Shown here: piece by piece, positions 3,562 through 37,745 of the stretch
How the letters are laid out: every line of letters starts with the position of its first letter
Position numbering within the stretch: the first letter of the stretch is position 1
Assembly (NCBI GenBank): GCA_027306655.1
Contig: DAHUZL010000031.1
Location: 830 to 64,829, forward strand
Direction of reading: 5' to 3'
Source: Candidatus Dormiibacterota bacterium
GTDB taxonomy: Bacteria; Chloroflexota; Dormibacteria; Aeolococcales; Bog-877
DNA: 64,000 nucleotides
Notes under the pieces: model-generated
Databases searched by the model: none
The model's input: only the letters and a program-made list of their open reading frames with translations
Told to the model about the DNA's origin: nothing
Program-made: the position numbers and the translations under genes

Positions 3562-5415
3562 CTATGTGCCGAGCGACCAGTACTGGGTGTTGAGGTACAG
3601 GAGCGGTCCCTGGACCACGCCCTTCAGGGTGTCTTTGATGACGCTCAGCTGGGCGTCCGGCGAGGGCAGCCAGAGGTCGGGCAGCTGCTTTTCCATGAAT
3701 GCCTGGTACTGGTACATCGGCGCAATCCCGTTCGCCTTGTGGGTCGCCGCGATCAGCGCGCTGGCGGTGGCGTTGCAGTAGCCGCCGGCGTTGTTGACCG
3801 ACCCGCAGCGGAGGATCTGGCCCCCGCTGGGATACGGGGAGTAGGTCCAGGCGTCGGGATTCTGCCAGTTGCCGATCTCCCAGTGACAGGTGGGCGCGTT
3901 GGTCTTGACGCAGGGGTCGACCACCGAGATCACCGAGTCGAAGGTCTGGGTCGAGAGCTGGAGCTGGATCCCCGCGGCCAGAAAGGACGACCGCAGCGCC
4001 TCCATCTCCTGCTCCAGGGCCAGGTAGCCGCTGTCGTACAGGAGGGTGAAGCTGAGCTGGGCCCCCGCCTTGATCCCGGCCCCGCAGTCGGCGGGACCGG
4101 CTCCGGGATGCCGGCAGGTGGAGGTCCCATTGGGATGGACCGCCCAGCCGTGGTCGCTGAGGAGGCGGACCGCGGCGGCCGGGTCGTAGGGGTAGGCAGC
4201 GTCCAGCTCGGCGCGGTTCAGGAATTGGGTCGCGGGTGCGCAGGGGACGGGGCCGTAGCAGGCGGTGGCGAAGCCCTTGAAGATGTCACGGACGTAGGCC
4301 GGTTGGTCGATGAGATGCTGCATCGCCTGGCGCACGTACAGCTGCTTCAGGATCGGCGCCGCCCCCAGGGTGTTGGTGTAGTTGAGGGGCATGAAGGTCG
4401 TGGCCCAGCCGATCTCGGGCGCGATCCGATAGCCGGCGCGCTCCAGCGCCTGCCGCTGGCTGATGTCCTGGATGGGCAGGTAGCCGTAGTCGACCGCTCC
4501 CGAGCGCAGGGCGTCGAACTCGGCGGTGTCGCCGGTGAAGGGCACCAGCTCCAGGGTGCCGATGCGGGGGCTCGGGCCGGGCCCGCGATACGCCGAGTTT
4601 CGGGAGAAGACCGTGAAGCCGGTGCTGGCGTCGAAGGAGGACAGGTGCCAGGGCCCGTCCACCACCTTCCAGAGCGGGCTGGTGGCGTAGGTGGCGAGCT
4701 TCTGCGACTGGCCGTTGAGGTACTTGTAGACCGCTCGCGCCCCCGCCGGCGTCTGGTCGTAGTTTCCGACCGCGCCTCCGGCCGAGGTCCGATCCCAGGC
4801 GTGCTGGGGGATCGGGGTCACCTGCAGGAGCTCGTTGTAGAGGAGCCAGTAGTCGTTGTAGACCCCGTTGAAGGTGAGGCTGAAGGTGTGGGCGTTGAGG
4901 TAGTCCTGCCCGACCACGTTGTAGGGGAAGGCGCCCGGCACCTCCGCGTACCAGTCGCCCACGTTGGCCTTGACCAGGTTCATCCAGAACTGGACGTCCC
5001 GGGAGGTGATCGGCTGCCCGTCCGACCAGTTGAGCGACTTCAGCGTGATGGTGACGACGGTGTGGCCGCCCCGGACCGAGAACTGGGGCGGGTCGGCGAG
5101 GCTGAGCGCGGGGTTGACCTTGATCTGGCTGCCGGTCTGGTAGTAGTAGAGCGTCTGGTAGAGCATCGGCTGGAAGTAGGTGAGGTTGAGGACGCTGGAG
5201 TCCGCCGCCGGGGTCAGCGGGAAGATGTAGTTGGGGGTGTTGCCGGCGGGGAGGGCGTAGGTGACGGTGCCGGTGGCGGCGTGCGGCCGGGCGGTGGCGG
5301 CGGCGCTGCCCGCGCCGGCCGCCACCAGCACCAGCGGCAGAATGGCCGCGAGCGCCCGCCGGCGCCAGCGGGGCGCGCGCAGTGGTCTCGCGGCCTCGGG
5401 AGTGAGATCGATCAC
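3562..5415 (-). CDS. ABC transporter substrate-binding protein, family 5 (Dpp/Opp-like), with a Tat-type signal peptide; orphan (no permease or ATPase nearby)
   Basis: 617 aa. N-terminus RWRRRALAAILPLVLVAAGAGSAAA is a twin-arginine signal, followed by a family-5 SBP-like body. GTG start with a GAGGAGG SD 8 nt upstream. Confidence 0.7.
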   Translation of the reverse strand: MIDLTPEAARPLRAPRWRRRALAAILPLVLVAAGAGSAAATARPHAATGTVTYALPAGNTPNYIFPLTPAADSSVLNLTYFQPMLYQTLYYYQTGSQIKVNPALSLADPPQFSVRGGHTVVTITLKSLNWSDGQPITSRDVQFWMNLVKANVGDWYAEVPGAFPYNVVGQDYLNAHTFSLTFNGVYNDYWLLYNELLQVTPIPQHAWDRTSAGGAVGNYDQTPAGARAVYKYLNGQSQKLATYATSPLWKVVDGPWHLSSFDASTGFTVFSRNSAYRGPGPSPRIGTLELVPFTGDTAEFDALRSGAVDYGYLPIQDISQRQALERAGYRIAPEIGWATTFMPLNYTNTLGAAPILKQLYVRQAMQHLIDQPAYVRDIFKGFATACYGPVPCAPATQFLNRAELDAAYPYDPAAAVRLLSDHGWAVHPNGTSTCRHPGAGPADCGAGIKAGAQLSFTLLYDSGYLALEQEMEALRSSFLAAGIQLQLSTQTFDSVISVVDPCVKTNAPTCHWEIGNWQNPDAWTYSPYPSGGQILRCGSVNNAGGYCNATASALIAATHKANGIAPMYQYQAFMEKQLPDLWLPSPDAQLSVIKDTLKGVVQGPLLYLNTQYWSLGT

Positions 5416-5573: not shown

Positions 5574-7691
5574 TCAGTCGGCGCGCCGGAGGAGCTGAAG
5601 CGAGCGCCCCTCGACGCCGACCAGTTCGCCGGCCCGCCGCGGCGGGCCCTCCGCCAGCGGGTCCCCCGCCGCGGTGTCGAGGATCCCCACCCACCGCTGG
5701 CCCCAGCGCCCCTGGGGGAGCCGGAACGGCACCGGCTCGTGGTGGGCGTTGAGGAGGACGAAGAAGCTGTCGTCGGTGACCCGCTCGCCCCTGCGCCCCG
5801 GGCTCGGGATCTGGTCGCCGTTGAGGAAGACGCCGATCGACTTGACGAAGCCCTGGCCCCACTCGTCGTCGGTCATCTCCTCCCCGCTGGGGGTGAACCA
5901 GCCGATGTCGGAGACCCCGGAGCCGTGCAGCGGGCGCCCCTCGAACCACTTGCGCCGGTGCAGGACCGGATGGCGCTGGCGCAGGCCCACCAGGTGGGCG
6001 GTGAAGTCCAGCAGCCGGCGGGCCTCGTCGTCCAGCTCCCACTCGAACCAGGAGAGCGCCGTGTCCTGGCAGTAGGCGTTGTTGTTGCCGGCCTGGGTCC
6101 GCCCCATCTCGTCGCCGCCGAGGATCATCGGAACCCCCTGGGAGAGCAGCAGGGTGGCGAGCATGTTGCGCGACTGGCGCCGTCGCAGGGCGCTGACCGC
6201 GGGATCGTCGGTGGGCCCCTCGGCGCCGCAGTTCCAGGACCGGTTGTCGTCGGCGCCGTCGCGATTGTCCTCGCCGTTGGCCTGGTTGTGCTTGTGCTCG
6301 TAGCTGACCAGGTCGCGGAGGGTGAAGCCGTCGTGGCAGGTGATGAAGTTGATCGAGGCGTACGGGCGCCGGCCGTTGGACGCGTAGAGGTCGGAGCTGC
6401 CCGTGAATCGGTAGGCGAACTCGGCGACGCCCCGCTCCGCCCCCCGCCAGTAGTCGCGGACGGTGTCCCGGTAGCGACCGTTCCACTCCGACCAGAGGGG
6501 GGGGAAGTTGCCCACCTGATAACCGCCCTCGCCGACGTCCCAGGGCTCGGCGATCAGCTTGACCTGGCTCACCACCGGGTCCTGCTGGATCAGGTCGAAG
6601 AACGCCGAGAGACGGTCGACGTCGTGGAGCTCGCGGGCCAGGGTGGCGGCGAGGTCGAAGCGGAAGCCGTCGACGTGCATCTCCAGGACCCAGTAGCGGA
6701 GGCTGTCCATGATCAGCTGGAGCACGTGGGGATGGCGCATGTTCATGGTGTTGCCGGTACCGGTGTAGTCGATGTAGCGGCGCGGGTCGGCGGGGTCGAG
6801 CCGGTAGTAGGCCTCGTTGTCGATGCCCCGGAAGCAGAGGGTCGGGCCCCGCTCGCTGCCCTCGCCGGTGTGGTTGTAGACCACGTCCAGAATCACCTCG
6901 ATCCCGGCGGCGTGGAGGGCCTTGACCATGGCCTTGAACTCGGGCACCTGCTGTCCGCGCGGGCCGGCGGCGCTGTAGGCGGCGTGGGGGGCGAGGAACC
7001 CGATCGAGTTGTAGCCCCAGTAGTTGCGGAGCCCGCGGGCGGCGAGCCGGCCGTCGTCCACGAAGTGGTGCACCGGGAGCAGCTCCAGGGCGGTGATCCC
7101 GAGCCGCTCCAGGTGAGCGATCACCGCCGGGGTGGCGAGGCCGGCGTAGGTCCCCCGGAGCTCGAGCGGGACGTCGGGGTGACGCATGGTGAGGCCGCGG
7201 ACGTGGGCCTCGTAGACCACGGTCTCGTGCCAGGGAGTGCGCAGGGGCCCGTCGCTGCCCCAGTCGAAGGCGGGGTCGACCACCACCGAGCGGGGCACCA
7301 GGCCGGCGCTGTCCTCGGTGTTGCGGAGCGTCTCCGCGTCGGGGGCGTCGAAGGGGTAGCCGTGGACCGCCTCGGCCCAGCGGACGTCCCCGTCGATGGC
7401 CCGGGCGTAGGGGTCGATCAGGAGCTTGTGGGGGTTGTAGCGGAGCCCGTCGCGGGGTCGGTGGGGGCCATCCACGCGGTAGCCGTAGCGCTGCCCCGGC
7501 CCCACCCCGGGCAGGTAGGCATGCCAGCAGAAGGCGGTCACCTCGCTGAGATCGACCGCGGTCTCGCGGCCGGCGTCGTCGAAGAGGCAGAGCCGGACCT
7601 GGTCGGCGTGCTCGGCGAAGAGGGAGAAGTTGGTTCCCCGTCCGTCGTAGGTCGCGCCCAGCGGGTACGGCTGTCCCGGCCAGGTGGTCAC
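5574..7691 (-). CDS. glgX: Glycogen debranching enzyme GlgX (GH13)
   Basis: [37 protein letters not shown] aligns with the GlgX N-terminus, and GH13 catalytic regions follow. I trimmed the ORF-track 5' extension (to 8585) to the GTG at 7691-7689, which overlaps the uvrB stop (GTGA). Confidence 0.85.
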
Positions 7692-17245: not shown

Positions 17246-17331
17246 GCCAGCATGGCGGAATGGCAGACGCGGCGGTCTCAAAAACCGTTGTCCGCAAGGA
17301 CGTCCGGGTTCGACCCCCGGTGCTGGCACCA
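17246..17331 (+). tRNA. tRNA-Leu (anticodon CAA), class II with a long variable arm and encoded CCA
   Basis: Manual fold: acceptor stem GCCAGCA/UGCUGGC; D arm GCGG-AAUGGCAGA-CGC; anticodon stem GCGGU/ACCGU with loop CUCAAAA; variable arm UGUCCGCAAGGACGU; T arm CCGGG-UUCGACC-CCCGG; ACCA tail. Structure is co-linear with E. coli tRNA-Leu. Confidence 0.85.
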
Positions 17332-30376: not shown

Positions 30377-30528
30377 CGAGGATCCCTCAGGTTGGCGGCG
30401 ACCCGCCCGGGCGGCTCAGCCGCGATCCGTGGCGCCGGTCGCGCCCAGGGTGGCTCGGTCGCCCGCAGCGGCCACCCCGTCCGGATGGTACCTGGCGTGC
30501 CAGACGAGCATATGCTACAGTGTCGCAC

Positions 30529-30771
30529 ATGAGGACCGGAGTGCGCGAGCTTCGCAACCAGACGCGTCAGGTGATCGATGCGGTGCGGGCCGGTGAGCGG
30601 GTCGTCCTGACCGTGCACGGCGCGGCGGTTGCGGACATCGTGCCCCACGGCCAGCGGTCCCGCTGGCTGGCCGGCGACCCTCTGCGTCGAGCGCTCGCCG
30701 AACGGGCAGCTGACCCGGCGCTCCGCGGTGATCTCAAGAGCCTCATCGGACAGACCCTGGACGAGCTGTGA
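30529..30771 (+). CDS. Type II antitoxin, Phd/YefM family
   Basis: MRTGVRELRNQTRQVIDAVRAGERVVLTVHGAAVADIVP is a classic Phd/YefM N-terminal fold. It probably starts at the ATG at 30529 (the ORF-track GTG at 30520 adds MSH). Its stop overlaps the VapC start. Confidence 0.75.
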   Translation: MRTGVRELRNQTRQVIDAVRAGERVVLTVHGAAVADIVPHGQRSRWLAGDPLRRALAERAADPALRGDLKSLIGQTLDEL

Positions 30772-31172
30772 TCGAGCCGGCCGGGCTCCTCGACACCTCG
30801 GTGTTCATCGCCCGCGAGGGGGGGCGACCCCTCGGCGAGCTGCCGGCCCGGGTGACGGTGTCGGTGATCACCCTGGGCGAACTCGAACTGGGAGTGCTGA
30901 GCGCTCCCGATGCCGCCTCCCGGGCTCGCCGGGGGGACACTTTGGCTCTCGCCAGGACCGCGGAGCCGGTTCCGATCAGCGAACCCATCATGGGGGCGTG
31001 GGCCCGCCTGGTGGCCGATTGCCGGGCCGCCGGTCTCCAGCGGACGGTCAAGATCACCGACGCGCTGATCGCCGCGACCGCGATCGACCTCGGCGTGCCG
31101 GTGGTGACCCAGGACGAGGACTACGACCAGATCGCGAGAGCGCACCGACCCCTCCACGTCCTCAAGGTGTAG
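30768..31172 (+). CDS. vapC: PIN-domain toxin VapC
   Basis: LLDTSVFIA (first acidic residue), further conserved D/E/D/D positions, and the C-terminal VVTQDEDY. 134 aa. The GTG start overlaps the Phd stop. Confidence 0.8.
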   Translation: MIEPAGLLDTSVFIAREGGRPLGELPARVTVSVITLGELELGVLSAPDAASRARRGDTLALARTAEPVPISEPIMGAWARLVADCRAAGLQRTVKITDALIAATAIDLGVPVVTQDEDYDQIARAHRPLHVLKV

Positions 31173-31274
31173 GGGCCGCTGCCGGGGAACGGGTCGACAG
31201 CCCGGACTGGGCGCGCCGGGCCGCGCTGGCTGGCGCACAGCCGCACGCGTCGGCGAGGGGCGTCGAGCGTATGT

Positions 31275-31280
31275 GTATAA
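31275..31280 (+). promoter_or_regulatory. Perfect TATAAT -10 hexamer just upstream of the second TA module (leaderless or near-leaderless transcript)
   Basis: gtatgtgTATAATatggggtgtggcg. The first candidate start codons (GTG 31289, TTG 31298) lie 9-18 nt downstream. Confidence 0.35.
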
Positions 31281-31288
31281 TATGGGGT

Positions 31289-31519
31289 GTGGCGAGATTG
31301 AACGTCTATCTCCCCGACGATCTGGCCGCCGCGGCGAGGCGGGCGGGTCTCAATGTCTCCGGACTGACCCGCGACGCGGTCCAGCGGGCGCTCACGTCCC
31401 GTTCCACGGACGAATGGCTCGCCACCCTGCGCCCGGTGCCCGCGCACCGGGCGACCCATGGCGGCGTGCTTGCCGCCCTCGACGCGGACCGCGACGAGCT
31501 CGCCACCCGCTGGGGCTGA
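31289..31519 (+). CDS. Ribbon-helix-helix (CopG/VapB-like) antitoxin
   Basis: NVYLPDDLAAAARRAGLNVSGLTRDAVQRAL has the beta-strand plus two-helix RHH pattern. Starts at GTG 31289 or TTG 31298. Sits upstream of, and overlaps, a PIN gene. Confidence 0.6.
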   Translation: MARLNVYLPDDLAAAARRAGLNVSGLTRDAVQRALTSRSTDEWLATLRPVPAHRATHGGVLAALDADRDELATRWG

Positions 31520-31898
31520 GGTCGTCGTCGACGCCTCGGCCCTGGTCGACCTCCTGCTCGGGGGCCCCCTCGGGGACCGGGTGGCGGCGCGGATCGCCGG
31601 CCGCCGACTGCACAGCCCTGCCCACCTCGACGCCGAGGTGCTGTCGGCACTGGGACGGATCCACCGCGCCGGCGACCTGTCGGCGGCAGCGGTCGAGACG
31701 CTGCTGGGGCGCTTGGTCGCGGCCCCGATCGCGCGGCATCCCGTGACCGCGCTCGTGGCCGGCGCCTGGTCCCGGCGCGGCCGCCTGCGCCTGGCCGACG
31801 CCCTCTATGTCGAGCTGGCGGCCGCGCTCGACCTGACGCTGGTGACCACGGACCGCCGGCTGGCAGCTCTCCCCGGTGCCGAGGTGGTCAGCGCCTGA
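31458..31898 (+). CDS. vapC: PIN-domain toxin (VapC family)
   Basis: VVVDASALVDLLLG and the C-terminal LVTTDRRL are PIN hallmarks. The only canonical start is the ATG at 31458, which overlaps the antitoxin by 62 nt; a shorter form with a non-canonical start is possible. Confidence 0.7.
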   Translation: MAACLPPSTRTATSSPPAGAEVVVDASALVDLLLGGPLGDRVAARIAGRRLHSPAHLDAEVLSALGRIHRAGDLSAAAVETLLGRLVAAPIARHPVTALVAGAWSRRGRLRLADALYVELAAALDLTLVTTDRRLAALPGAEVVSA

Positions 31899-31947
31899 CG
31901 GCGCCGATGTGCCGGTCGTGCCGGGCGGCCGGCCGTGGACCCCTCCC

Positions 31948-34900
31948 CTACGCCCGGCGGGCGCCGACCGACTCCGGCCGCGGCGCGTCCGGGCTCGCGC
32001 TCCCAGCGTCCGCGATCGCGCGGGCCCGATCGGCCCACGGCCACGCGCTGAAGTCGGTCAGCGCCGTGATCGCCGCCCGGGCCAGCGGCTCGGAGGCAGC
32101 CGGACGGCCGATCGCGGCCAGCCACTCGGCGTGGTCGAGCCGGGCCCGCGCCAGCCAATAGGGATAGCCGAGACGGCTGAGCGCGTCCTCGGCGGCGGTG
32201 AAGCCGGCCGCAGCCGCGCCCTCGTCGCCGCGGGCGGCGGCCAGGCGGGCTCGGAACCGATCCACCTGGGCCCGCAGGTAGGGGGGGACCCGCCCCGGGG
32301 CCTGGGCCAGCACGGGCGCCAGCAGGCGGTCCACACGCTCCGGGTCGCCTCCGCCGAGCGCGGCCTCGAGGGCGTCGGGGAGGAGCTGACGGGTGATGAT
32401 GTTGCCGAGGCCGAACAGGCCCATCGCCTCCGCCAGCGCCCCGTCCGCCACCTGGAGGGCAGGCCCCGGCTGACCCTCGGCCATCAGCGTCGCGACCTCG
32501 CCCGTGAGGAACGCGAGCCGGCGCTCGGCATGCGCGGTGGCGCGCTCGGCCTCGAGCCGGGCCAGGCCGTCCCGGCACTCCGCGGGCTCTCCCCGCCAGG
32601 CGGCGAGCAGCACCCGGCACCACCCGACGTGCACCGCGAGCGCCCCGCCCGGATCGTCGGCGGCGGGGCGCCCCAGAGCCTCGGTCATCAGCTGGGCGGC
32701 CTCGTCGGCGCAGCCGGCGAAGAGCAGGGCCAGGCCCAGGCTGTGAAGGCTGCTCGCCTCCATCTGTCGCAGGCCGAGGCGGCGGGCCTCCGCCAGGACC
32801 GCTCGCGCCTGGTCGGCGCCACTCGGCACGTCCCAGGCGAGAGCCTCCTCGGTGAGGTTGGAGCGAACCACCAGGCCCTGCCGGAACAGCCCCGCGGCGT
32901 CGGCGGTGTCCGCCGCCAGCCGGTAGTAGGCCTCTGCCTCCCGGATCCTGGCCAGGTTGCTGAGCCAGATCGCCTTGCCGTTGGCCGCGGTGGAGAGGAC
33001 CCGCGGGAGCTCGAGGGCGGCCGACTCGCTGAGGGCGGTCTCGATCAGGGGGCCGGCCTCCTCTCCCCGCCCGGCGACGACCAGCGCCCCGCCGAGTTGG
33101 GCATGCACCGCCGCCCGCACCGCCGCGTTGGCGGCGCCAGGGCCCTCGAGTGCCGCCAGCATTGGACTGAGCCGTGCGATCGCCTCGTCCGGACGACCGA
33201 GGCTGGTCAGCGAGTTGGCGATCTGGGTGGTGACCCGGCCCGCGTCCACCACCCGGTCGGCGGCGGCGTGGATGGCGGCCGCCTGGTCGAAGAGCGCCGC
33301 GGCCCGAGCCGGCTGGCCTGCGTCCAGGGCCGCCTCGCCGGCCGCCTCGGCGTGGCGCGCCACCGCCGCGGGGGTCACCGCCAGGGCCAGCGCCTGCTGG
33401 CTCGCCGCCAGCGCGGCCTCGGGCGCCCCCAGCTCGGCGGCCCGCTGGGCCGCCCGGGCGAAGGCCTCCTCCGCCGCCTCGCGCAGGGGGGTCTCGTCGG
33501 GGTCGCCGAGGGCCGCCTCGAGCGCGCGGAAGCGATGGATCGCGACTGCCTCGGCGACCTCGGCGCCTCCCTCGGCGAAGGTCGCCTCCAGGTGGGTGGC
33601 GGCGGCGAGGTGGTGCGCCTTGCGCTCGGACCGGGTGAGCAGCTCATAGGCGACCTGTCGGAACAGCTGCTGGCCGAAGGCGTACTGGCCGCGCTCCGGA
33701 GAGAGCCGGTCGGCCCGCAGGACCAGGACCTCCTTGCGGACCAGCTGGGCCAGCAGCCGCGCCAGCGCCTCGGGCGGCTGGCCGCCGATCGCTCCCGCGG
33801 CCATGGCCGGGAACGCGCCCGCGAACACGGAGAGGGCGGTCGCCAGCCGGCGCTCGTCGGGGTCGAGGGCATCGAGCCGGGCCGCCAGCAGGGTGGTGAG
33901 CGAGACCGGCAGCGCCAGGGCGTCCGGTTCGCGGAGGACGGTGTAGCTGCCCTCGTCGGTCGCGCGGAGGAAGCCCTGGTCGTGGAGGGCGCGGAGGAGC
34001 TCGGTCACGAACAGGGGAATGCCCTCGGACCGGTCCCGGAGGGCGTCACGGAGGGGAAGCGGGCAGCCGGGGACCAGGGCCTCGATCAGCTCGCTCAGCG
34101 CCGGCGGCGGGAGCGGCTGCACCCACAGGGGGGTGACCGCGCGCCGGGAGCCGAGGTCGGGGCGTCGCTCCAGCAGCTCGGGCCGACCGCTGAGGATGAG
34201 CAGGAGGGGGTGCTCGCCGGACCAGTCGAGCAGGTGGTCGAGGAAGTCGAGCAGGCCCGGGTCGGCCCACTGGGCATCGTCCACCCACACCACGGAGGGA
34301 GCCGTCTGCGCCAGCCGTTCGAGGAAGAGCCGCCAGCCGGCGAAGAGCTCGTCACGGGTGAGGTCGCGGGTGGTCGGCAGGCCGAGCAGGACGGCCAGGG
34401 CCGGCCCCACCCACGCCTGCTCGCCGAGGTCGGGCACGTACGCCGCCAGCCCCGTCTCCAGCTTGGCCGTGGCCGCCGCCGCGTCATCGCTCTCCAGAAG
34501 CCCCAACCGACCGCGGACCACCTGCGCCAGCGCGTAGAAGGCGACCCCCTCGCCGTAGGCGAGGCAGCGGCCGGTGTGCCAGAGGACGGTGGCGCTGAGC
34601 CCGTCGAGGTAGGAGCCGAGCTCGGCCGCCAGCCGGCTCTTCCCCACCCCCGGCGGGCCCAGGAGCAGGATCAGCCGGGCCCGGCGTTCCTCGGCGGTGG
34701 TGTGGTAGAGCTCCTTCAGGGTGGCCAGCTCGCGGGCCCGGCCCACCAGGGGGATCGCCTGCCCCAGGCTGTGGTCCTCGCCGCCGAGCCCGGCCACCAC
34801 CCGGAGCGCGCGGTAGAGGGCCTGGGGCTCCGCCTTGCCCTTGAGGACGTGGGTGCCGGCGTCGGTGAAGCCGATCGCCACCCGCGCCGCCGCCCAGGTG

Positions 34901-35586
34901 GCAGCGTCGGTCAGGACCTGGCCCGGGCCGCCGGCGGCCTGGATCCGGGCTGCGGTGTTGACCAGGTCACCCGCCACCAGCCCCTCGCCCTGGGCCGCCC
35001 AGGTGGCGACCGCCCCGCTGCCGACGCCCGCGCGCGCGGCCAGCTCCCCCGTGCCGCGGGTTTCGCCGTACGCGGGCACGGCGGTCACGATCTCGAGGGC
35101 CGCGCGGACCGCGCGCTCGGCCTGGTCCTCGGTGGCCCGGCCCGCCCCCCACACCGCCATCACCGCGTCGCCGATAAATTTCTCCAGCACCCCCCCGTGA
35201 CGGGTGACCGCTCGGCGGGCGAGGTCGAAGTACCCGGAGAGCAGCTCACGGACGTCCTCGGGGTCGCGTCCCTCGGCCAGCGACGTGAACCCGACCAGGT
35301 CGACGAAGAGGACGGAGACCAGGTGCCGCTCCGAGCCGGCCCGCTGCTCCGGTGGCGGTGCCGGCCCGGCGGACCCGACCGTGCCGGGGACGGCGGCCGC
35401 CGGCTCCGGGGCGGGCCCGGCCAGGAGGGTCGCGCCGCAGTCGGCGCAGTGGCGCTGGTCGGGGCGGATGGCAGCGGCGCCGCAGCGGGGGCAGGCGCTG
35501 GCCAGGGCCGCGCCACAGCTGGCGCAGAACCGCTGGCCCGGCGCCAGCACCGCCGCGCCACAGGCTGGGCATGGGGCCGGATCCAT
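31948..35586 (-). CDS. Multidomain signalling protein, 1212 aa: N-terminal double zinc ribbon, class III adenylate/guanylate cyclase (CHD), AAA_16-type STAND ATPase, and C-terminal TPR-like helical repeats
   Basis: CPACG...CASCG...CPRCG...CADCG (four CxxC); cyclase motifs LVSVLFVDLVGFTSL and KFIGDAVMAVWG; Walker A LLLGPPGVGKS; Walker B/AAA_16 signature VVWVDDAQWAD; then ~650 aa of Ala/Leu-rich helical repeats. Start trimmed to the ATG at 35586 (MDPAPCPACG). Confidence 0.8.
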   Translation of the reverse strand: MDPAPCPACGAAVLAPGQRFCASCGAALASACPRCGAAAIRPDQRHCADCGATLLAGPAPEPAAAVPGTVGSAGPAPPPEQRAGSERHLVSVLFVDLVGFTSLAEGRDPEDVRELLSGYFDLARRAVTRHGGVLEKFIGDAVMAVWGAGRATEDQAERAVRAALEIVTAVPAYGETRGTGELAARAGVGSGAVATWAAQGEGLVAGDLVNTAARIQAAGGPGQVLTDAATWAAARVAIGFTDAGTHVLKGKAEPQALYRALRVVAGLGGEDHSLGQAIPLVGRARELATLKELYHTTAEERRARLILLLGPPGVGKSRLAAELGSYLDGLSATVLWHTGRCLAYGEGVAFYALAQVVRGRLGLLESDDAAAATAKLETGLAAYVPDLGEQAWVGPALAVLLGLPTTRDLTRDELFAGWRLFLERLAQTAPSVVWVDDAQWADPGLLDFLDHLLDWSGEHPLLLILSGRPELLERRPDLGSRRAVTPLWVQPLPPPALSELIEALVPGCPLPLRDALRDRSEGIPLFVTELLRALHDQGFLRATDEGSYTVLREPDALALPVSLTTLLAARLDALDPDERRLATALSVFAGAFPAMAAGAIGGQPPEALARLLAQLVRKEVLVLRADRLSPERGQYAFGQQLFRQVAYELLTRSERKAHHLAAATHLEATFAEGGAEVAEAVAIHRFRALEAALGDPDETPLREAAEEAFARAAQRAAELGAPEAALAASQQALALAVTPAAVARHAEAAGEAALDAGQPARAAALFDQAAAIHAAADRVVDAGRVTTQIANSLTSLGRPDEAIARLSPMLAALEGPGAANAAVRAAVHAQLGGALVVAGRGEEAGPLIETALSESAALELPRVLSTAANGKAIWLSNLARIREAEAYYRLAADTADAAGLFRQGLVVRSNLTEEALAWDVPSGADQARAVLAEARRLGLRQMEASSLHSLGLALLFAGCADEAAQLMTEALGRPAADDPGGALAVHVGWCRVLLAAWRGEPAECRDGLARLEAERATAHAERRLAFLTGEVATLMAEGQPGPALQVADGALAEAMGLFGLGNIITRQLLPDALEAALGGGDPERVDRLLAPVLAQAPGRVPPYLRAQVDRFRARLAAARGDEGAAAAGFTAAEDALSRLGYPYWLARARLDHAEWLAAIGRPAASEPLARAAITALTDFSAWPWADRARAIADAGSASPDAPRPESVGARRA

Positions 35587-35743
35587 CCCTCCCGCCTCTC
35601 CTACGCCGTCGCCACGGCCGGTGCCACGCGCGGAACGTACCACGGGGCGCCGACCCCATGGAGGTCCCCCCCGCTGCTCGGCGGCCCGTGCGGTCCCGTG
35701 CTGCGACGGTGCCGTGCCGACCGAAGACCGCATGCGCCACCGC

Positions 35744-36154
35744 TCATCCGGGGACGATCTCCAGTCGATGCCGGCCGTGGAGTCGGTAGACTCGGAAGTC
35801 GCTGTCCAGGGTGAACACGCGACGATCCCCACGCTCCTCGGCCAGAGCGACGAGAGTGGCGTCGGCGAGGTCCATGGGCAGGTCCGCGTACTTGGTCATC
35901 AGGACGGAGCTGCGCTCCAGGGTTGGCCGAGACAGATCGGCAATCTCCAATCGCCGGCTCAGGACCAGCTTCCACAACGCATCCCGACCCCGTCGGCCGC
36001 CCGCTCGTGACACCAGGTACATGGCCTCGGTGAACGCCGGCCACGTCGTGAGCCACGGGAGGGGGAGCCGCTCCGCGACCATCCGGCACAGCTGGTGGTC
36101 GGGTTCGTCGGCGTCGATCAGCGCGACGAGCGGCCCCGCGTCGGTCAGGGTCAC
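35744..36154 (-). CDS. PIN-domain toxin (VapC-like)
   Basis: LVALIDADEPDH near the N-terminus and the C-terminal FTLDSDF are a PIN acidic-residue pattern. 136 aa. Start overlaps the upstream RHH gene stop (ATGA). Confidence 0.7.
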   Translation of the reverse strand: MTLTDAGPLVALIDADEPDHQLCRMVAERLPLPWLTTWPAFTEAMYLVSRAGGRRGRDALWKLVLSRRLEIADLSRPTLERSSVLMTKYADLPMDLADATLVALAEERGDRRVFTLDSDFRVYRLHGRHRLEIVPG

Positions 36155-36396
36155 GCTGGCGACGAGGGTTCGGCCACGATGTCGGTGAACGTCTCCCCCG
36201 TGCGCCGGGCTCGACCACCGCCGCCATGGACAACGCCGAGCACGTCGGTCAGGTCGTCAGCGTGACCGACCACCAGGGTCGCATCGGCCCGCTCGGCGGC
36301 GGCACGACGGATGAACTCCGACAGTGACTCCCCTCGGACGGCGGCCGCGCGCTGGAGCCTGCCCTCGAGCTCGGGATCGAGCCGAACACTCTTCAT
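36151..36396 (-). CDS. Ribbon-helix-helix (CopG family) antitoxin
   Basis: MKSVRLDPELEGRLQRAAAVRGESLSEFIRRAAAERA has the canonical RHH pattern. 81 aa, immediately upstream of the PIN gene. Confidence 0.7.
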   Translation of the reverse strand: MKSVRLDPELEGRLQRAAAVRGESLSEFIRRAAAERADATLVVGHADDLTDVLGVVHGGGGRARRTGETFTDIVAEPSSPA

Positions 36397-36405
36397 CGCC
36401 CCACG

Positions 36406-36433
36406 GTATCACGAGTTCGGTCAGACGTGATAC
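36406..36433. promoter_or_regulatory. 8-bp perfect inverted repeat (GTATCACG-N12-CGTGATAC) 10-35 nt upstream of the RHH antitoxin start; candidate autoregulatory operator
   Basis: Read directly: ggtatcacgagttcggtcagacgtgatac. Confidence 0.4.
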
Positions 36434-36872
36434 GCATCCGCCCGGGACACCCGCCATCCTCCGGCGTTGCGCCCCACCGCGGTTCGGTGGCGGCGGCCGA
36501 GGGGGCGGTCGGTGAGCGGCACCCGCTGCAGCGCTCCGTCTACGGGGTCCCGGCTCGGGACCGGCGCCCCGCTGATTGCCACGATCCGCCGCACCCCGGC
36601 GGCCTGCATCGCCCGAAGGATGCGGCGCGCGCCCCGGGAGCACACGGTCACGCCGTCCGCACCCCGGTGGGGGCCGAGCGCGGACAGCACCGCTTCGGCG
36701 TCCGCAAGGTCCGTACCGACAGCGGGTCGAAGATGTCGGCCTGGAGGACCCGAAGATTGTGATGCTCCACCCGGAGGCGCGCGGGATCACGGTCCACGGC
36801 GGTGACCTCATGCCCCTGGGCCAACGCCCGCTCCAAGATCGCCCGGTTCCCTCCCATGCGGAACCCCACCGG
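36421..36872 (-). pseudogene. Disrupted NAD(P)-binding NmrA/atypical-SDR-like gene (frameshifted, 3'-truncated)
   Basis: Two overlapping minus-strand ORFs in different frames (36648-37019 and 36421-36690) together align with an NmrA/YwnB-like Rossmann protein (GNRAILERALAQGHEVTAVDRDPARL... then GVRRIVAISGAPV...). There is a frameshift near 36680, and the reading frame ends at 36421 against the RHH-PIN module, so the C-terminal ~60 aa are missing. Confidence 0.5.
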
Positions 36873-37000
36873 GTGGGTGGAGACGGTTCCGGTCGGCCGC
36901 CGTGGCGGAGCCGGTCGAGCGCCGCGTTGGCCGATCGACATGGAGGCGCACCAGCATCGTAGCGACATCGGCTCCGTCGGCAGCCACCCACGGGTCGGCC

Positions 37001-37423
37001 TCATCGGGTCATCTCCCACGGGTCGATCACATCGACCCCCGTGTCCCGAAAGTCCTTGAGGTTCCGCGTTGCCAGGGTGGCATTGTGGGCCCGGCAGATG
37101 GCGGCAATCTGTGCGTCGACGCCATCGATAGGTGCACCGACGCTCTCTCGGTGAGTGACGATCTCTGAATAGGCCACCGCCGCGGTCGCGTCGAAAGGCA
37201 GCACCTGCTCAGGGAAACCGGAGAACACGCCGGCAGCGGAGTGGCGCAGGAGGTCCTTGCGCGGGCCGTCAGGCAGCCGCTCGATGCCGTAGAGGATCTC
37301 GGCAAGCGTGATCGCCGTGGTGTACAGATCGGCGGTGTTGCAGGCTCTCACCCACGCCGTCACCGCTGGTGACGGCGTGGGCTTCATCAGCTCGGAGGTG
37401 ACGTTGGTATCGACGATGATCAT
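37001..37423 (-). CDS. vapC: PIN-domain toxin VapC (FitB-like)
   Basis: MIIVDTNVTSEL N-terminus and conserved acidic positions, ending NLKDFRDTGVDVIDPW. 140 aa. Start overlaps the antitoxin stop (ATGA). Confidence 0.8.
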   Translation of the reverse strand: MIIVDTNVTSELMKPTPSPAVTAWVRACNTADLYTTAITLAEILYGIERLPDGPRKDLLRHSAAGVFSGFPEQVLPFDATAAVAYSEIVTHRESVGAPIDGVDAQIAAICRAHNATLATRNLKDFRDTGVDVIDPWEMTR

Positions 37424-37665
37424 GCAGAGAGGTCGGCCGCCCGTGCCCGGGTCGTCCGACGGGACAGCTCAAGGTCGACGCCTCCGATGTCGCCGAAGCG
37501 GTCTTGTAGGGCAATGAACAGTCCCTCCGGGGGCCGCGGCTGGCTGACGGCGGCGACCAGGATGGAGCGGATCTCCGCCTCCATCGACCGGCCGTGGCGA
37601 GCCGCCCTGACCCGCAACCGTTCCCGCACGTGGTCGTCGAGACCGCGAATGCTCACTGCCGCCAC
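37420..37665 (-). CDS. FitA/VapB-like antitoxin (Arc/MetJ-type RHH, plasmid-stability-like)
   Basis: MAAVSIRGLDDHVRERLRVRAARHGRSMEAEIRSIL matches the FitA/StbC-like pattern. GTG start with a GAAGGAGG SD 7 nt upstream. Confidence 0.65.
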   Translation of the reverse strand: MAAVSIRGLDDHVRERLRVRAARHGRSMEAEIRSILVAAVSQPRPPEGLFIALQDRFGDIGGVDLELSRRTTRARAADLSA

Positions 37666-37685
37666 CGCGGTGCCTCCTTCAGTCC

Positions 37686-37700
37686 GCTAGCAATGCTAGC
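37686..37700. promoter_or_regulatory. Perfect palindrome GCTAGCA-A-TGCTAGC ~20 nt upstream of the FitA-like antitoxin start; candidate operator
   Basis: Read directly: ccgctagcaatgctagcac. Confidence 0.4.
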
Positions 37701-37745
37701 ACACGGGCTGCGACCGATCGATGACCGGCAGGGCCGCTTCGATCG

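Follow-up and report, generated by a model that had tools for sequence, protein, structure and literature searches.

The 64-kb stretch of DNA analysed here (the window) encodes a large protein in which a nucleotide cyclase is joined to a STAND ATPase and a repeat sensor, and the gene lies among four PIN toxin–antitoxin (TA) pairs. The initial annotation linked the cyclase to these toxins in a defence or stress module. Does the locus form such a module, or do its parts simply lie side by side? We conclude that this member of a very large family of MalT-like STANDs is probably a physiological, soluble class III cyclase gated by a signal, with cAMP as its most likely product and without a functional tie to the PIN TA pairs.

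The gene and its immediate 5′ sequence are as follows.

31948–35586, minus strand: cyclase-STAND-TPR gene, a complete ORF of 1212 aa (ORF list and translation)
35587–35602, minus strand: purine-rich stretch GGAGAGGCGGGAGGG directly 5′ of the cyclase ATG, a putative Shine-Dalgarno-like element

The stop codon occupies 31948–31950 and the ATG lies at 35586. A GTG at 35832 would yield a longer ORF. However, 89 nt of this ORF would lie within the upstream PIN gene, and the homologs start at the MxCxxC of the zinc ribbon; we therefore retain the ATG, and with GGAGAGGCGGGAGGG ahead of it and the homolog N-termini the coordinates first assigned were right. The protein is on record at NCBI, and a 99%-identical copy exists in a second MAG. 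Public labels for the family are 'class 3 adenylate cyclase / TPR repeat protein', 'adenylate/guanylate cyclase domain-containing protein' and 'AAA family ATPase'.

Five regions can be delimited along the protein.

35434–35574, minus strand: double zinc ribbon, aa 5–51, with four CxxC motifs (Pfam DZR, Zn_ribbon_3, Zn_Ribbon_1)
34828–35322, minus strand: class III cyclase homology domain, aa 89–253 (Pfam PF00211), with catalytic D96, D140, K136, R185, N210 and R214 and a non-canonical L203
34195–34752, minus strand: STAND nucleotide-binding domain (AAA_16), aa 279–464 (Pfam, Walker A/B, Foldseek)
33670–34194, minus strand: helical domain with GxP (G522-I-P524) and winged-helix domain, aa ~465–639 (AlphaFold2 secondary structure; approximate borders)
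31999–33669, minus strand: arm and MalT-like TPR/SUPR solenoid sensor, aa ~640–1196, with ~28 helices (AlphaFold2, family profile)

Pfam, motifs, AlphaFold2 and Foldseek bear out the four-part architecture (zinc ribbon, class III cyclase, AAA_16 STAND, TPR) proposed in the initial annotation, and all of the motifs it listed (four CxxC, FVDLVGFT, IGDAVMAVWG, GPPGVGKS and VVWVDDAQWAD) can be read in the translation. The zinc ribbon comprises C6xxC9, C21xxC24, C32xxC35 and C47xxC50 (DZR / Zn_ribbon_3 on aa 5–51, E 2e-12); counted from the homologs' Pfam lists, 97 of the 120 listed homologs have it and 23 lack it. AAA_16 matches aa 279–464 with 75.3 bits (E 1e-20; cut-off 32.6). Walker A GPPGVGKS (aa 310–317, K316) and VVWVDDAQWAD (aa 432–442), which contains Walker B VVWVDD (D436/D437), conform to the STAND patterns GxxxxGK[ST] and hhhhD[DE], and a sensor-1-like R468 lies just beyond the domain. 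K316, D437, R468 and G522 are invariant in 120/120 homologs and P524 is kept in 119/120, while position 436, an Asp in the window protein, is Glu in 118/120.

No TPR Pfam model matches the window protein itself. We assign its C-terminal half to TPRs because the profile of the family finds the TPRs of LGN/Pins and of kinesin light chains (E 1e-15 to 1e-11), homologs carry TPR_12 and TPR_MalT, and the AlphaFold2 model (pLDDT 89.7, pTM 0.73) places ~28 antiparallel helices in this region. The top Foldseek match was 6mfv, a STAND whose sensor consists of TPRs, and Apaf-1 was also matched; by sequence, no solved structure was significantly related to the ATPase-to-arm region (aa 270–700; all E>0.08). 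The protein thus has the GxP helical domain, winged helix, arm and C-terminal repeat sensor of a MalT-like STAND, and domain order and fold support the logic read into it at the outset, namely an enzymatic effector at the N-terminus that an NTPase switch connects to a repeat sensor at the C-terminus. Pfam gave no GerE or other HTH match at E≤0.01, and helical repeats run up to aa 1196, in agreement with the earlier remark that a C-terminal LuxR HTH is lacking.

PF00211 matches aa 89–253 with 56.9 bits (E 2.6e-15; gathering threshold 21.9), and the motifs FVDLVGFT and IGDAVMAVWG fall at aa 94–101 and 138–147. PDB searches with this domain matched Cya2, CyaC and CyaB. The initial annotation had allowed for a pseudo-cyclase devoid of metal- and substrate-binding residues, a domain that would only bind nucleotide or serve as a scaffold. 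The sole residue to favour this is 203, which is non-canonical. Against it, D96, K136, D140, R185, N210 and R214 are invariant in 120/120 homologs and the phosphate-binding GFT is invariant or nearly so; the register of the metal Asp pair (D96/D140) and of the transition-state residues (N210/R214) was checked against CyaC and Cya2. Moreover, no part of the protein is better conserved than the cyclase domain (63% identity across phyla in 120 homologs, against 52% for the ATPase domain and 29–38% for the TPR region). Degeneracy is thus scarcely credible: judged by its residues, the domain is not degenerate, and its predicted catalytic site is intact and strongly conserved.

The likely product is cAMP. 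The substrate-specifying residues, which the initial annotation had singled out for alignment, consist of an invariant K136 and a non-canonical partner at 203, Leu in 94/120 homologs and Met in 24/120. This makes the product uncertain, because known adenylate cyclases pair the Lys with Asp (classes IIIa/c/d) or with Thr/Ser (class IIIb); L203 itself aligns with a Thr in CyaC and a Gly in Cya2. The same architecture and switch might accordingly yield cGMP, a pyrimidine cNMP or a mixture, as Leu or Met in 118/120 homologs and the best single PDB sequence match, the guanylate cyclase Cya2, would suggest. However, guanylate cyclases carry Glu at the position of the adenine-selecting Lys, as Cya2 does in our alignment, whereas K136 never varies. 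Rv1900c and Rv0386 also lack the canonical substrate pair, yet produce cAMP. For Rv0386, Castro et al. in 2005 reportedly described the base-specifying residues as non-canonical. A product other than cAMP is therefore unlikely, though it deserves to be kept in mind.

Four TA pairs flank the gene, in keeping with the PIN cluster described initially.

35744–36396, minus strand: RHH antitoxin (36151–36396) and PIN toxin (35744–36154), upstream of the cyclase on the same strand, 4-nt overlap (Pfam RHH_1/TacA1, PIN)
37001–37665, minus strand: FitA-like RHH antitoxin (37420–37665) and VapC-type PIN toxin (37001–37423) (Pfam FitA-like_RHH, PIN; NCBIfam VapC)
30520–31172, plus strand: Phd/YefM antitoxin (30520–30771) and PIN toxin (30768–31172) (Pfam, NCBIfam)
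31271–31898, plus strand: CcdA-like antitoxin (31271–31519) and PIN toxin (31458–31898), convergent with the cyclase (Pfam CcdA, PIN)

The nearest upstream PIN gene ends 157 bp before the cyclase ATG, and the stop of the convergent PIN gene lies 49 bp from the cyclase stop. All four pairs have the organisation of type II VapBC modules, three with a 4-nt and one with a 62-nt overlap, and the cyclase stands outside every pair. Each PIN is a single-domain protein of 134–146 aa with its own translationally coupled antitoxin, and Pfam detects no cyclic-nucleotide-binding domain in any of them. Together with the cyclase and an NAD-binding pseudogene, the pairs occupy a 7.4-kb spacer between gatC and ligA. 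Most of the 19 distant loci in which gatCAB was found downstream of ligA share the uvrD-ligA-gatCAB synteny with a spacer of 0.3–3.6 kb, and none has a cyclase at this place; the cyclase and toxin pairs fill a variable ligA–gatC spacer. GC3 of the cyclase is slightly lower than that of core genes (0.92 vs 0.96–0.98). Its place in a variable islet rich in TA genes, together with this GC3, would also be compatible with an accessory part in stress or defence.

The proposal of a defence module holds that the STAND-TPR part senses phage or stress and that the cyclic nucleotide activates or frees the PIN toxins, in abortive infection of a Pycsar or Avs kind. Its attraction lies in the variable islet with four PIN pairs, one of them 157 bp upstream on the same strand, and in an order of effector, NTPase and repeats like that of immune STANDs. 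The initial annotation itself had named widespread homologs lacking a conserved TA/PIN or defence neighbourhood as grounds for rejecting it, and this is the pattern seen. The family has 12,686 representatives at 50% identity (E≤1e-30), and species genomes contain at least 591 relatives. We sampled 80 homolog loci from Actinomycetota, Chloroflexota and Dormibacterota, with 80 LigA loci as a control. A PIN gene lay within 8 kb in 4/80 homolog loci against 1/80 control loci (4 per 1.19 Mb vs 1 per 0.99 Mb) and was adjacent to the cyclase in only 2/80. In the better of these two cases the PIN is related to a different PIN of the window and adjoins a transposase fragment. The only recurrent neighbour was a tandem paralog (12/80 loci). 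Among the 125 immediate neighbours of the 80 loci, 130 Pfam families were seen, none in more than 4, and PADLOC returned scattered single matches and no defence system. Independently annotated homolog contexts also differ, featuring an Mrp antiporter, Fic/TetR/MFS genes or a LuxR-AAA_16 regulator, and no relatives were found on viral contigs. A STAND clade has been assigned to defence if known defence genes are significantly enriched within 5 kb of it (null probability 0.0153) or if it carries an immune-type effector (PMC13581612). The neighbourhoods of the 80 loci leave the suggested link to toxins and defence unsupported. It is literally true, as first stated, that this architecture had not been characterised in such a gene context, but the context is not conserved in the 80 loci, and the position of the cyclase among four PIN pairs looks like a local accident and not a functional module.

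Comparison with known immune systems points the same way. The PycC HMMs of PADLOC match the cyclase domain (E 6.6e-16), and the class III fold is common to both. However, the match is generic, scoring the same 56 bits as the Pfam cyclase model, and in structure the domain resembles CyaB, Cya2 and CyaC more than it does the Pycsar cyclases 7r65, 8jsf and 8jsz. Moreover, where Pycsar sets PycC beside a TIR or transmembrane cNMP-binding effector, the window locus has no adjacent effector with a cNMP-binding domain, only PIN/antitoxin pairs and the NAD-binding pseudogene, and the substrate Lys is kept. With Avs/AVAST the protein shares its three-part layout, in which a STAND ATPase lies between the effector and a C-terminal repeat sensor. 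It differs in that its effector is a signalling enzyme, not a cell-killing nuclease or protease, and its sensor aligns over the full length between phyla; the Avs models of PADLOC, a check suggested in the initial annotation, gave no match at E≤0.01. Cyclase-STAND fusions in immunity are a published prediction (10.64898/2026.08.12.744502; PMC7159879), and the cyclases that a preprint of 2026 places in a predicted immune clade, on long branches, are fused to NACHT or AP-ATPase STANDs (10.64898/2026.08.12.744502). In contrast, the ATPase here is AAA_16/MalT-like and the family evolves slowly, without a defence neighbourhood. Taken together, these data make a defence module highly unlikely.

A narrower coupling, confined to this lineage, would have a physiological sensor co-transcribed with the upstream RHH-PIN pair, or cAMP acting on the TA promoters through a Crp-type regulator. 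Co-transcription is conceivable because no terminator-like site was found in the 157-bp gap on the shared strand, and the arrangement is kept in the second MAG. However, that MAG is essentially the same organism and does not offer independent conservation. Furthermore, the cyclase has a predicted ribosome-binding site of its own, no structured or Rfam element was found in its leader, and no Crp-box (TGTGA-N6-TCACA, ≤2 mismatches) occurs at 30–38 kb, the window's 6 matches (7.7 expected) all lying elsewhere. We think such coupling improbable. It would be more surprising still if a MalT-like cyclase-STAND had been recruited to the TA islet as an infection or stress sensor whose product, a cyclic nucleotide that in view of the Lys/Leu pair may not be cAMP, controls VapC indirectly via a receptor. 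This is a long shot, and would amount to a second-messenger-gated TA or abortive-infection module in a poorly sampled high-GC lineage.

The signal-gated cyclase that we favour can also be compared with other known proteins. Like Rv0386, Rv1358 and Rv2488c of M. tuberculosis, it combines an N-terminal class III cyclase with a STAND-type P-loop ATPase (PMC3938503; bioRxiv 10.1101/2024.03.06.583649). Compared by architecture, not sequence, it lacks the C-terminal LuxR/GerE HTH of the Rv0386 type, ends in an extended TPR solenoid of the MalT kind and bears an additional double zinc ribbon at the N-terminus. MalT of E. coli and PH0952 of P. horikoshii (PDB 6MFV) are also STAND ATPases with TPR/SUPR sensors, but here a cyclase, and not a DNA-binding domain, serves as the effector. 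The TIGR03903 model of TOMM system kinase/cyclase fusions aligns with aa 127–854 (the C-terminal part of the cyclase, AAA_16 and part of the TPRs), albeit with 196.2 bits against a cut-off of 705.75 and over model positions 329–1045 only; the window protein has no kinase domain, and TOMM biosynthesis genes were not seen nearby.

The locus itself matters little, as one more member of a very large, routinely annotated family. What deserves attention is the family, and for reasons independent of the PIN neighbourhood that made the locus seem special. Our literature search found no biochemical study of the window protein or of any TPR-terminated member, sequence searches detect no solved relative of the ATPase-to-arm region, and the invariant Lys with a Leu/Met partner represents an unexplored specificity variant. 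Moreover, a dimerisation-dependent cyclase fused to a ligand-oligomerised switch offers a clean, testable activation mechanism.

Active sites of class III cyclases arise only at a dimer interface, and a lone cyclase domain would thus be inactive at rest, when the ADP-bound nucleotide-binding domain would be closed and the protein monomeric. A ligand or partner would bind the MalT-like TPR sensor, ADP would be exchanged for ATP, and the STAND core would open and oligomerise, forcing the N-terminal cyclase domains into head-to-tail dimers in which D96/D140 would bind metals and the partner chain would supply K136, N210 and R214; the zinc ribbon may also play a role. The switch is modelled on published STAND mechanisms (PMC6468293, PMC4381067, PMC10427625), and the inducer- and ATP-dependent oligomerisation assumed here follows MalT and PH0952 (PMC6468293, PMC4381067). 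The cAMP would presumably be read by ordinary receptors, either Crp-type regulators or proteins with a cNMP-binding domain. A single E. coli CRP query, a weak test, found no cNMP receptor in the 64-kb window. Elsewhere in the family, two homolog loci encode an MFS transporter with a fused cNMP-binding domain next to the cyclase or at most a few kb away, and one has a Crp regulator near the cyclase.

The cyclase gene was read as an ORF on the reverse strand running from an ATG at 35586 to a stop at 31948-31950 and encoding 1212 aa, so that the limits given in the initial annotation (31948-35586) are correct. The longest ORF begins at a GTG at 35832, a start we rejected owing to its 89-nt overlap with the upstream PIN gene. 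The ATG at 35586 is the credible start since homologs begin at the MxCxxC zinc ribbon; a purine-rich GGAGAGGCGGGAGGG stretch lies 5′ of it. All of the motifs previously quoted are present in the translation, namely four CxxC pairs (C6/C9, C21/C24, C32/C35 and C47/C50), FVDLVGFT (94-101) and IGDAVMAVWG (138-147) in the cyclase domain, and GPPGVGKS (310-317) and VVWVDDAQWAD (432-442) in the STAND ATPase. Pfam recognises three domains:

aa 5-51, double zinc ribbon
aa 89-253, Guanylate_cyc (E 2.6e-15)
aa 279-464, AAA_16 (E 1e-20)

Pfam TPR models did not match the query protein itself. The family profile, however, matches the TPR domains of LGN/Pins and kinesin light chain (E 1e-15 to 1e-11), and TPR_12 and TPR_MalT are found in homologs. 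Moreover, an AlphaFold2 model (aa 60-1212, 120-sequence alignment, mean pLDDT 89.7, pTM 0.73) contains about 28 antiparallel helices from approximately aa 640 to 1196, and the top Foldseek match was 6mfv, a Pyrococcus horikoshii STAND protein with a TPR sensor; Apaf-1 matched too. The TPR solenoid suspected from the sequence is thus well supported. A profile of the region joining ATPase to arm (aa 270-700) found nothing significant among PDB sequences.

Conservation was assessed by aligning the query with 119 homologs of 42-48% identity (n = 120). The metal-binding aspartates D96 and D140, the substrate lysine K136, the phosphate-binding R185 and the transition-state residues N210 and R214 are each kept in 120/120 sequences, and the GFT motif shows almost no variation. 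Conservation extends to the ATPase motifs: Walker A K316, Walker B D437 (with E/D436), a sensor-1-like R468 and the GxP residues G522/P524. Mean identity is 63% in the cyclase domain, 52% in the nucleotide-binding domain, 47% in the helical/winged-helix part, 29-38% in the TPR region and 45% at the C-terminal end. With the metal and substrate residues invariant and the cyclase domain the best conserved part of the protein, the idea of a degenerate pseudo-cyclase fails, and we regard it as vanishingly improbable.

The substrate is less plainly written. Class III cyclases use Asp (IIIa/c/d) or Thr (IIIb) as the purine-reading partner of the lysine, seven residues before the transition-state asparagine. 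In the window protein this position is L203 (Leu in 94/120 and Met in 24/120 sequences), aligned by HMMER with a Thr in CyaC and a Gly in Cya2. As the lysine is invariant, ATP is the likeliest substrate as judged from these residues. A product other than cAMP, which the unusual Leu would allow and which is compatible with any other reading of the protein, is unlikely.

A class III cyclase must dimerise to be active, since both chains contribute to each site. In MalT-type STAND proteins, an inducer on the sensor converts an ADP-bound closed monomer into an ATP-bound open multimer (PMC6468293, PMC4381067, PMC10427625). By analogy, once a ligand or partner had bound the MalT-like TPR sensor, nucleotide would be exchanged, the STAND core would oligomerise, and the N-terminal cyclase domains would then dimerise and produce cAMP to be read by cellular receptors. 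We infer this activation path, with its product, its receptors and a putative role for the zinc ribbon; the switch resembles those of MalT and PH0952, and the catalytic core those of CyaB and CyaC. The protein is best explained as a STAND-gated, cAMP-making cyclase, and this reading is probable.

The closest named relatives are the mycobacterial proteins Rv0386, Rv1358 and Rv2488c, in which a cyclase and an AAA ATPase are joined to a LuxR HTH (PMC3938503; bioRxiv 10.1101/2024.03.06.583649), whereas the window protein has no LuxR/GerE HTH match in Pfam, as had been noted at the outset. The nearest NCBIfam model, a TOMM kinase/cyclase fusion, is matched only partially (196 bits against a cut-off of 705.75). 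PDB entries 1ybt/1ybu are Rv1900c and not Rv0386.

The initial annotation further placed the gene in a PIN island and proposed a defence or stress module whose product could act on the neighbouring effectors or toxins. The location is confirmed. The spacer between gatC (end 30376) and ligA (end 37746) has, on either side of the cyclase, four PIN toxins in all, every one of them paired with a small antitoxin. On the cyclase strand, the nearest PIN lies upstream and stops 157 bp short of the ATG. Besides the cyclase, the spacer contains:

30520-30771 (+), Phd antitoxin, with PIN toxin 30768-31172 (+)
31271-31519 (+), CcdA-like antitoxin, with PIN toxin 31458-31898 (+)
36151-36396 (-), RHH antitoxin, with PIN toxin 35744-36154 (-)
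36648-37019 (-), NAD_binding_10-like ORF fragment, Pfam model positions 8-55 of 184, just below threshold
36421-36690 (-), overlapping NAD_binding_10-like ORF fragment, model positions 66-103 of 184, just below threshold
37420-37665 (-), FitA-like antitoxin, with PIN toxin 37001-37423 (-)

The glycine-rich motif is degenerate in the two fragments, and 36421-37019 (-) has the appearance of an NAD(P)H-binding/NmrA-like pseudogene, frameshifted and truncated, between two toxin-antitoxin pairs. In a second MAG, GCA_027313325.1, whose contig is 99% identical, the PIN convergent with the cyclase (4157-4597 of its contig, window 31458-31898) is split into two ORFs that both match the PIN HMM, through either a frameshift or an assembly error.

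The 7.4-kb spacer (30377-37745) thus holds four toxin-antitoxin pairs, the cyclase and the decayed NAD(P)H-binding pseudogene, and with them all four PINs of the 64-kb window. The order uvrD-ligA-gatCAB is kept in most of 19 distant LigA loci with gatCAB downstream of ligA. In most of these the spacer from ligA to gatC/gatA measures 0.3-3.6 kb, two have 7-8 kb, and none contains a cyclase. The spacer looks like a place where accessory genes accumulate, and such a variable spot explains the co-location of cyclase and toxin-antitoxin pairs without a functional link. The flanking PINs are single-domain proteins of 134-146 aa that leave no space for a nucleotide-binding domain, and each has its own coupled antitoxin. 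We consider a lineage-specific regulatory coupling of the cyclase to the toxin-antitoxin genes quite unlikely. The best relatives of the window LigA in metagenomes are 57-58% identical, and therefore there is no close genome by which to date the insertion.

We then turned to the neighbourhoods of homologs, taking 80 loci with flanks of at most 8 kb per side. Genes were called by GC3 minus max(GC1, GC2), and since small genes are noisy under this scheme, PINs were detected by Pfam on neighbours and by an HMM built from the four PINs of the window and run iteratively against all six-frame ORFs. A PIN was found in the flanks of 4/80 loci and within 1 kb in 2/80. This is 4 per 1.19 Mb, compared with 1 per 0.99 Mb in 80 unrelated LigA loci. 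In one locus (L023) a PIN lies upstream on the same strand, mimicking the window. We rejected this as conserved synteny, as its PIN is 51% identical to the PIN at 30768 and not to that at 35744, and a transposase fragment lies downstream. This fragment (6472-6885) resembles an integrase/transposase core (…IRTLKAQLLWVE…FKERYNRTW…), which suggests that the locus is a mobile-element scar.

Clustering of four genes per side gave a single recurrent neighbour, a tandem paralogous cyclase-STAND gene in 12/80 loci. The 125 immediate neighbours carry 130 Pfam families, none in more than four proteins, the commonest being short-chain dehydrogenases, NmrA, SnoaL and glyoxalase. PADLOC identified no defence system among these 125 proteins and returned isolated matches only: one methyltransferase, two mad3/mad8-like, one AriA-like and one to the cNMP-binding part of the PycTIR model, while one paralog matches PycC. 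Three independently annotated contexts differ from one another (a Mrp antiporter operon; a tandem paralog near a LuxR-AAA_16 regulator; Fic, TetR and MFS genes) and agree that a PIN or defence context is not conserved. Cyclases fused to STAND NTPases have earlier been proposed as immune components (10.64898/2026.08.12.744502; PMC7159879), which would favour the defence module. That proposal concerns NACHT and AP-ATPase fusions with long branches (10.64898/2026.08.12.744502), whereas the window family is slow-evolving and AAA_16/MalT-like, and it appears to fit the 'physiological' category of that study better than the immune one. Taken together, the initial reading stands in part, without its link to defence and PIN toxins, and a defence module is very unlikely.

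Only two loci have neighbours that hint at a partner in signalling, and what these suggest is ordinary cNMP physiology. Both encode an MFS transporter that carries a cNMP-binding domain at its C-terminus; in L049 its gene comes immediately after that of the cyclase, and in L067 it is found a few kb upstream. L049 further encodes a Crp-type regulator, 3.4 kb downstream. These proteins might read the cyclase product in normal physiology:

L049 11597-13372, MFS-cNMP fusion
L049 14991-15659, Crp-type regulator
L067 1583-3307, MFS-cNMP fusion

The tandem paralogs (e.g. L065) hint at hetero-oligomers or heterodimeric cyclases; in L165 (6001-12986) the two copies overlap by 4 nt, at the start of the one that has the zinc ribbon, which the other lacks.

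The family is large. A word-indexed search gave at least 7,995 matches at E ≤ 1e-10 among 8,000 candidates scored, and when 1.84 billion 50%-identity representatives were searched exhaustively with HMMER, 12,686 matched at E ≤ 1e-30 and 50,341 at E ≤ 1e-10. Of the top 150 HMMER matches, roughly two-thirds cover over 1,000 of the 1,153 residues in the query, the rest being shorter proteins or partial matches. The four-part or three-part architecture was seen in MAGs of Acidimicrobiia, Thermoleophilia, Actinomycetes, Dormibacterota and Chloroflexota, the zinc ribbon being missing in 23/120 homologs among the matches listed. Public labels include 'class 3 adenylate cyclase/tetratricopeptide (TPR) repeat protein', 'adenylate/guanylate cyclase domain-containing protein' and 'AAA family ATPase'. 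Rhizobial megaplasmids commonly carry more distant cyclase-ATPase relatives (32-34% identity); the one on S. meliloti pSymA, where the record is unannotated, is 32% identical over both domains. The IMG/VR viral contigs scanned held no relative. The contig P0001 is near-identical to that of the window, and outside the same organism the nearest homolog among the matches listed is about 45-50% identical. With its LigA and cyclase relatives both distant, the host lineage is poorly sampled. The remaining interest is family-wide and lies not in the locus or its PIN neighbours: the predicted activation mechanism, the Lys/Leu substrate pair, and an ATPase-to-arm region without a solved structure detectable by sequence.

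Lastly, regulatory signals were sought. A scan of 31.7-36.6 kb identified no promoters or terminators, the sigma-70 consensus being uninformative at the host GC of ~75%. The 157-bp leader has no Rfam match and no terminator, and its RNA fold is not notable (z -1.49). No Crp boxes occur in the islet (6 in the window against 7.7 expected), E. coli CRP matched no window ORF in what is a weak, single-query test, and the window contains no cyclase paralog elsewhere. Across the whole 64 kb of the window, Rfam gave a single match at gathering threshold:

17246-17328 (+), tRNA

Very long spurious antisense ORFs also occur in the window, such as that of 1312 aa opposite the cyclase (31876-35814, +).
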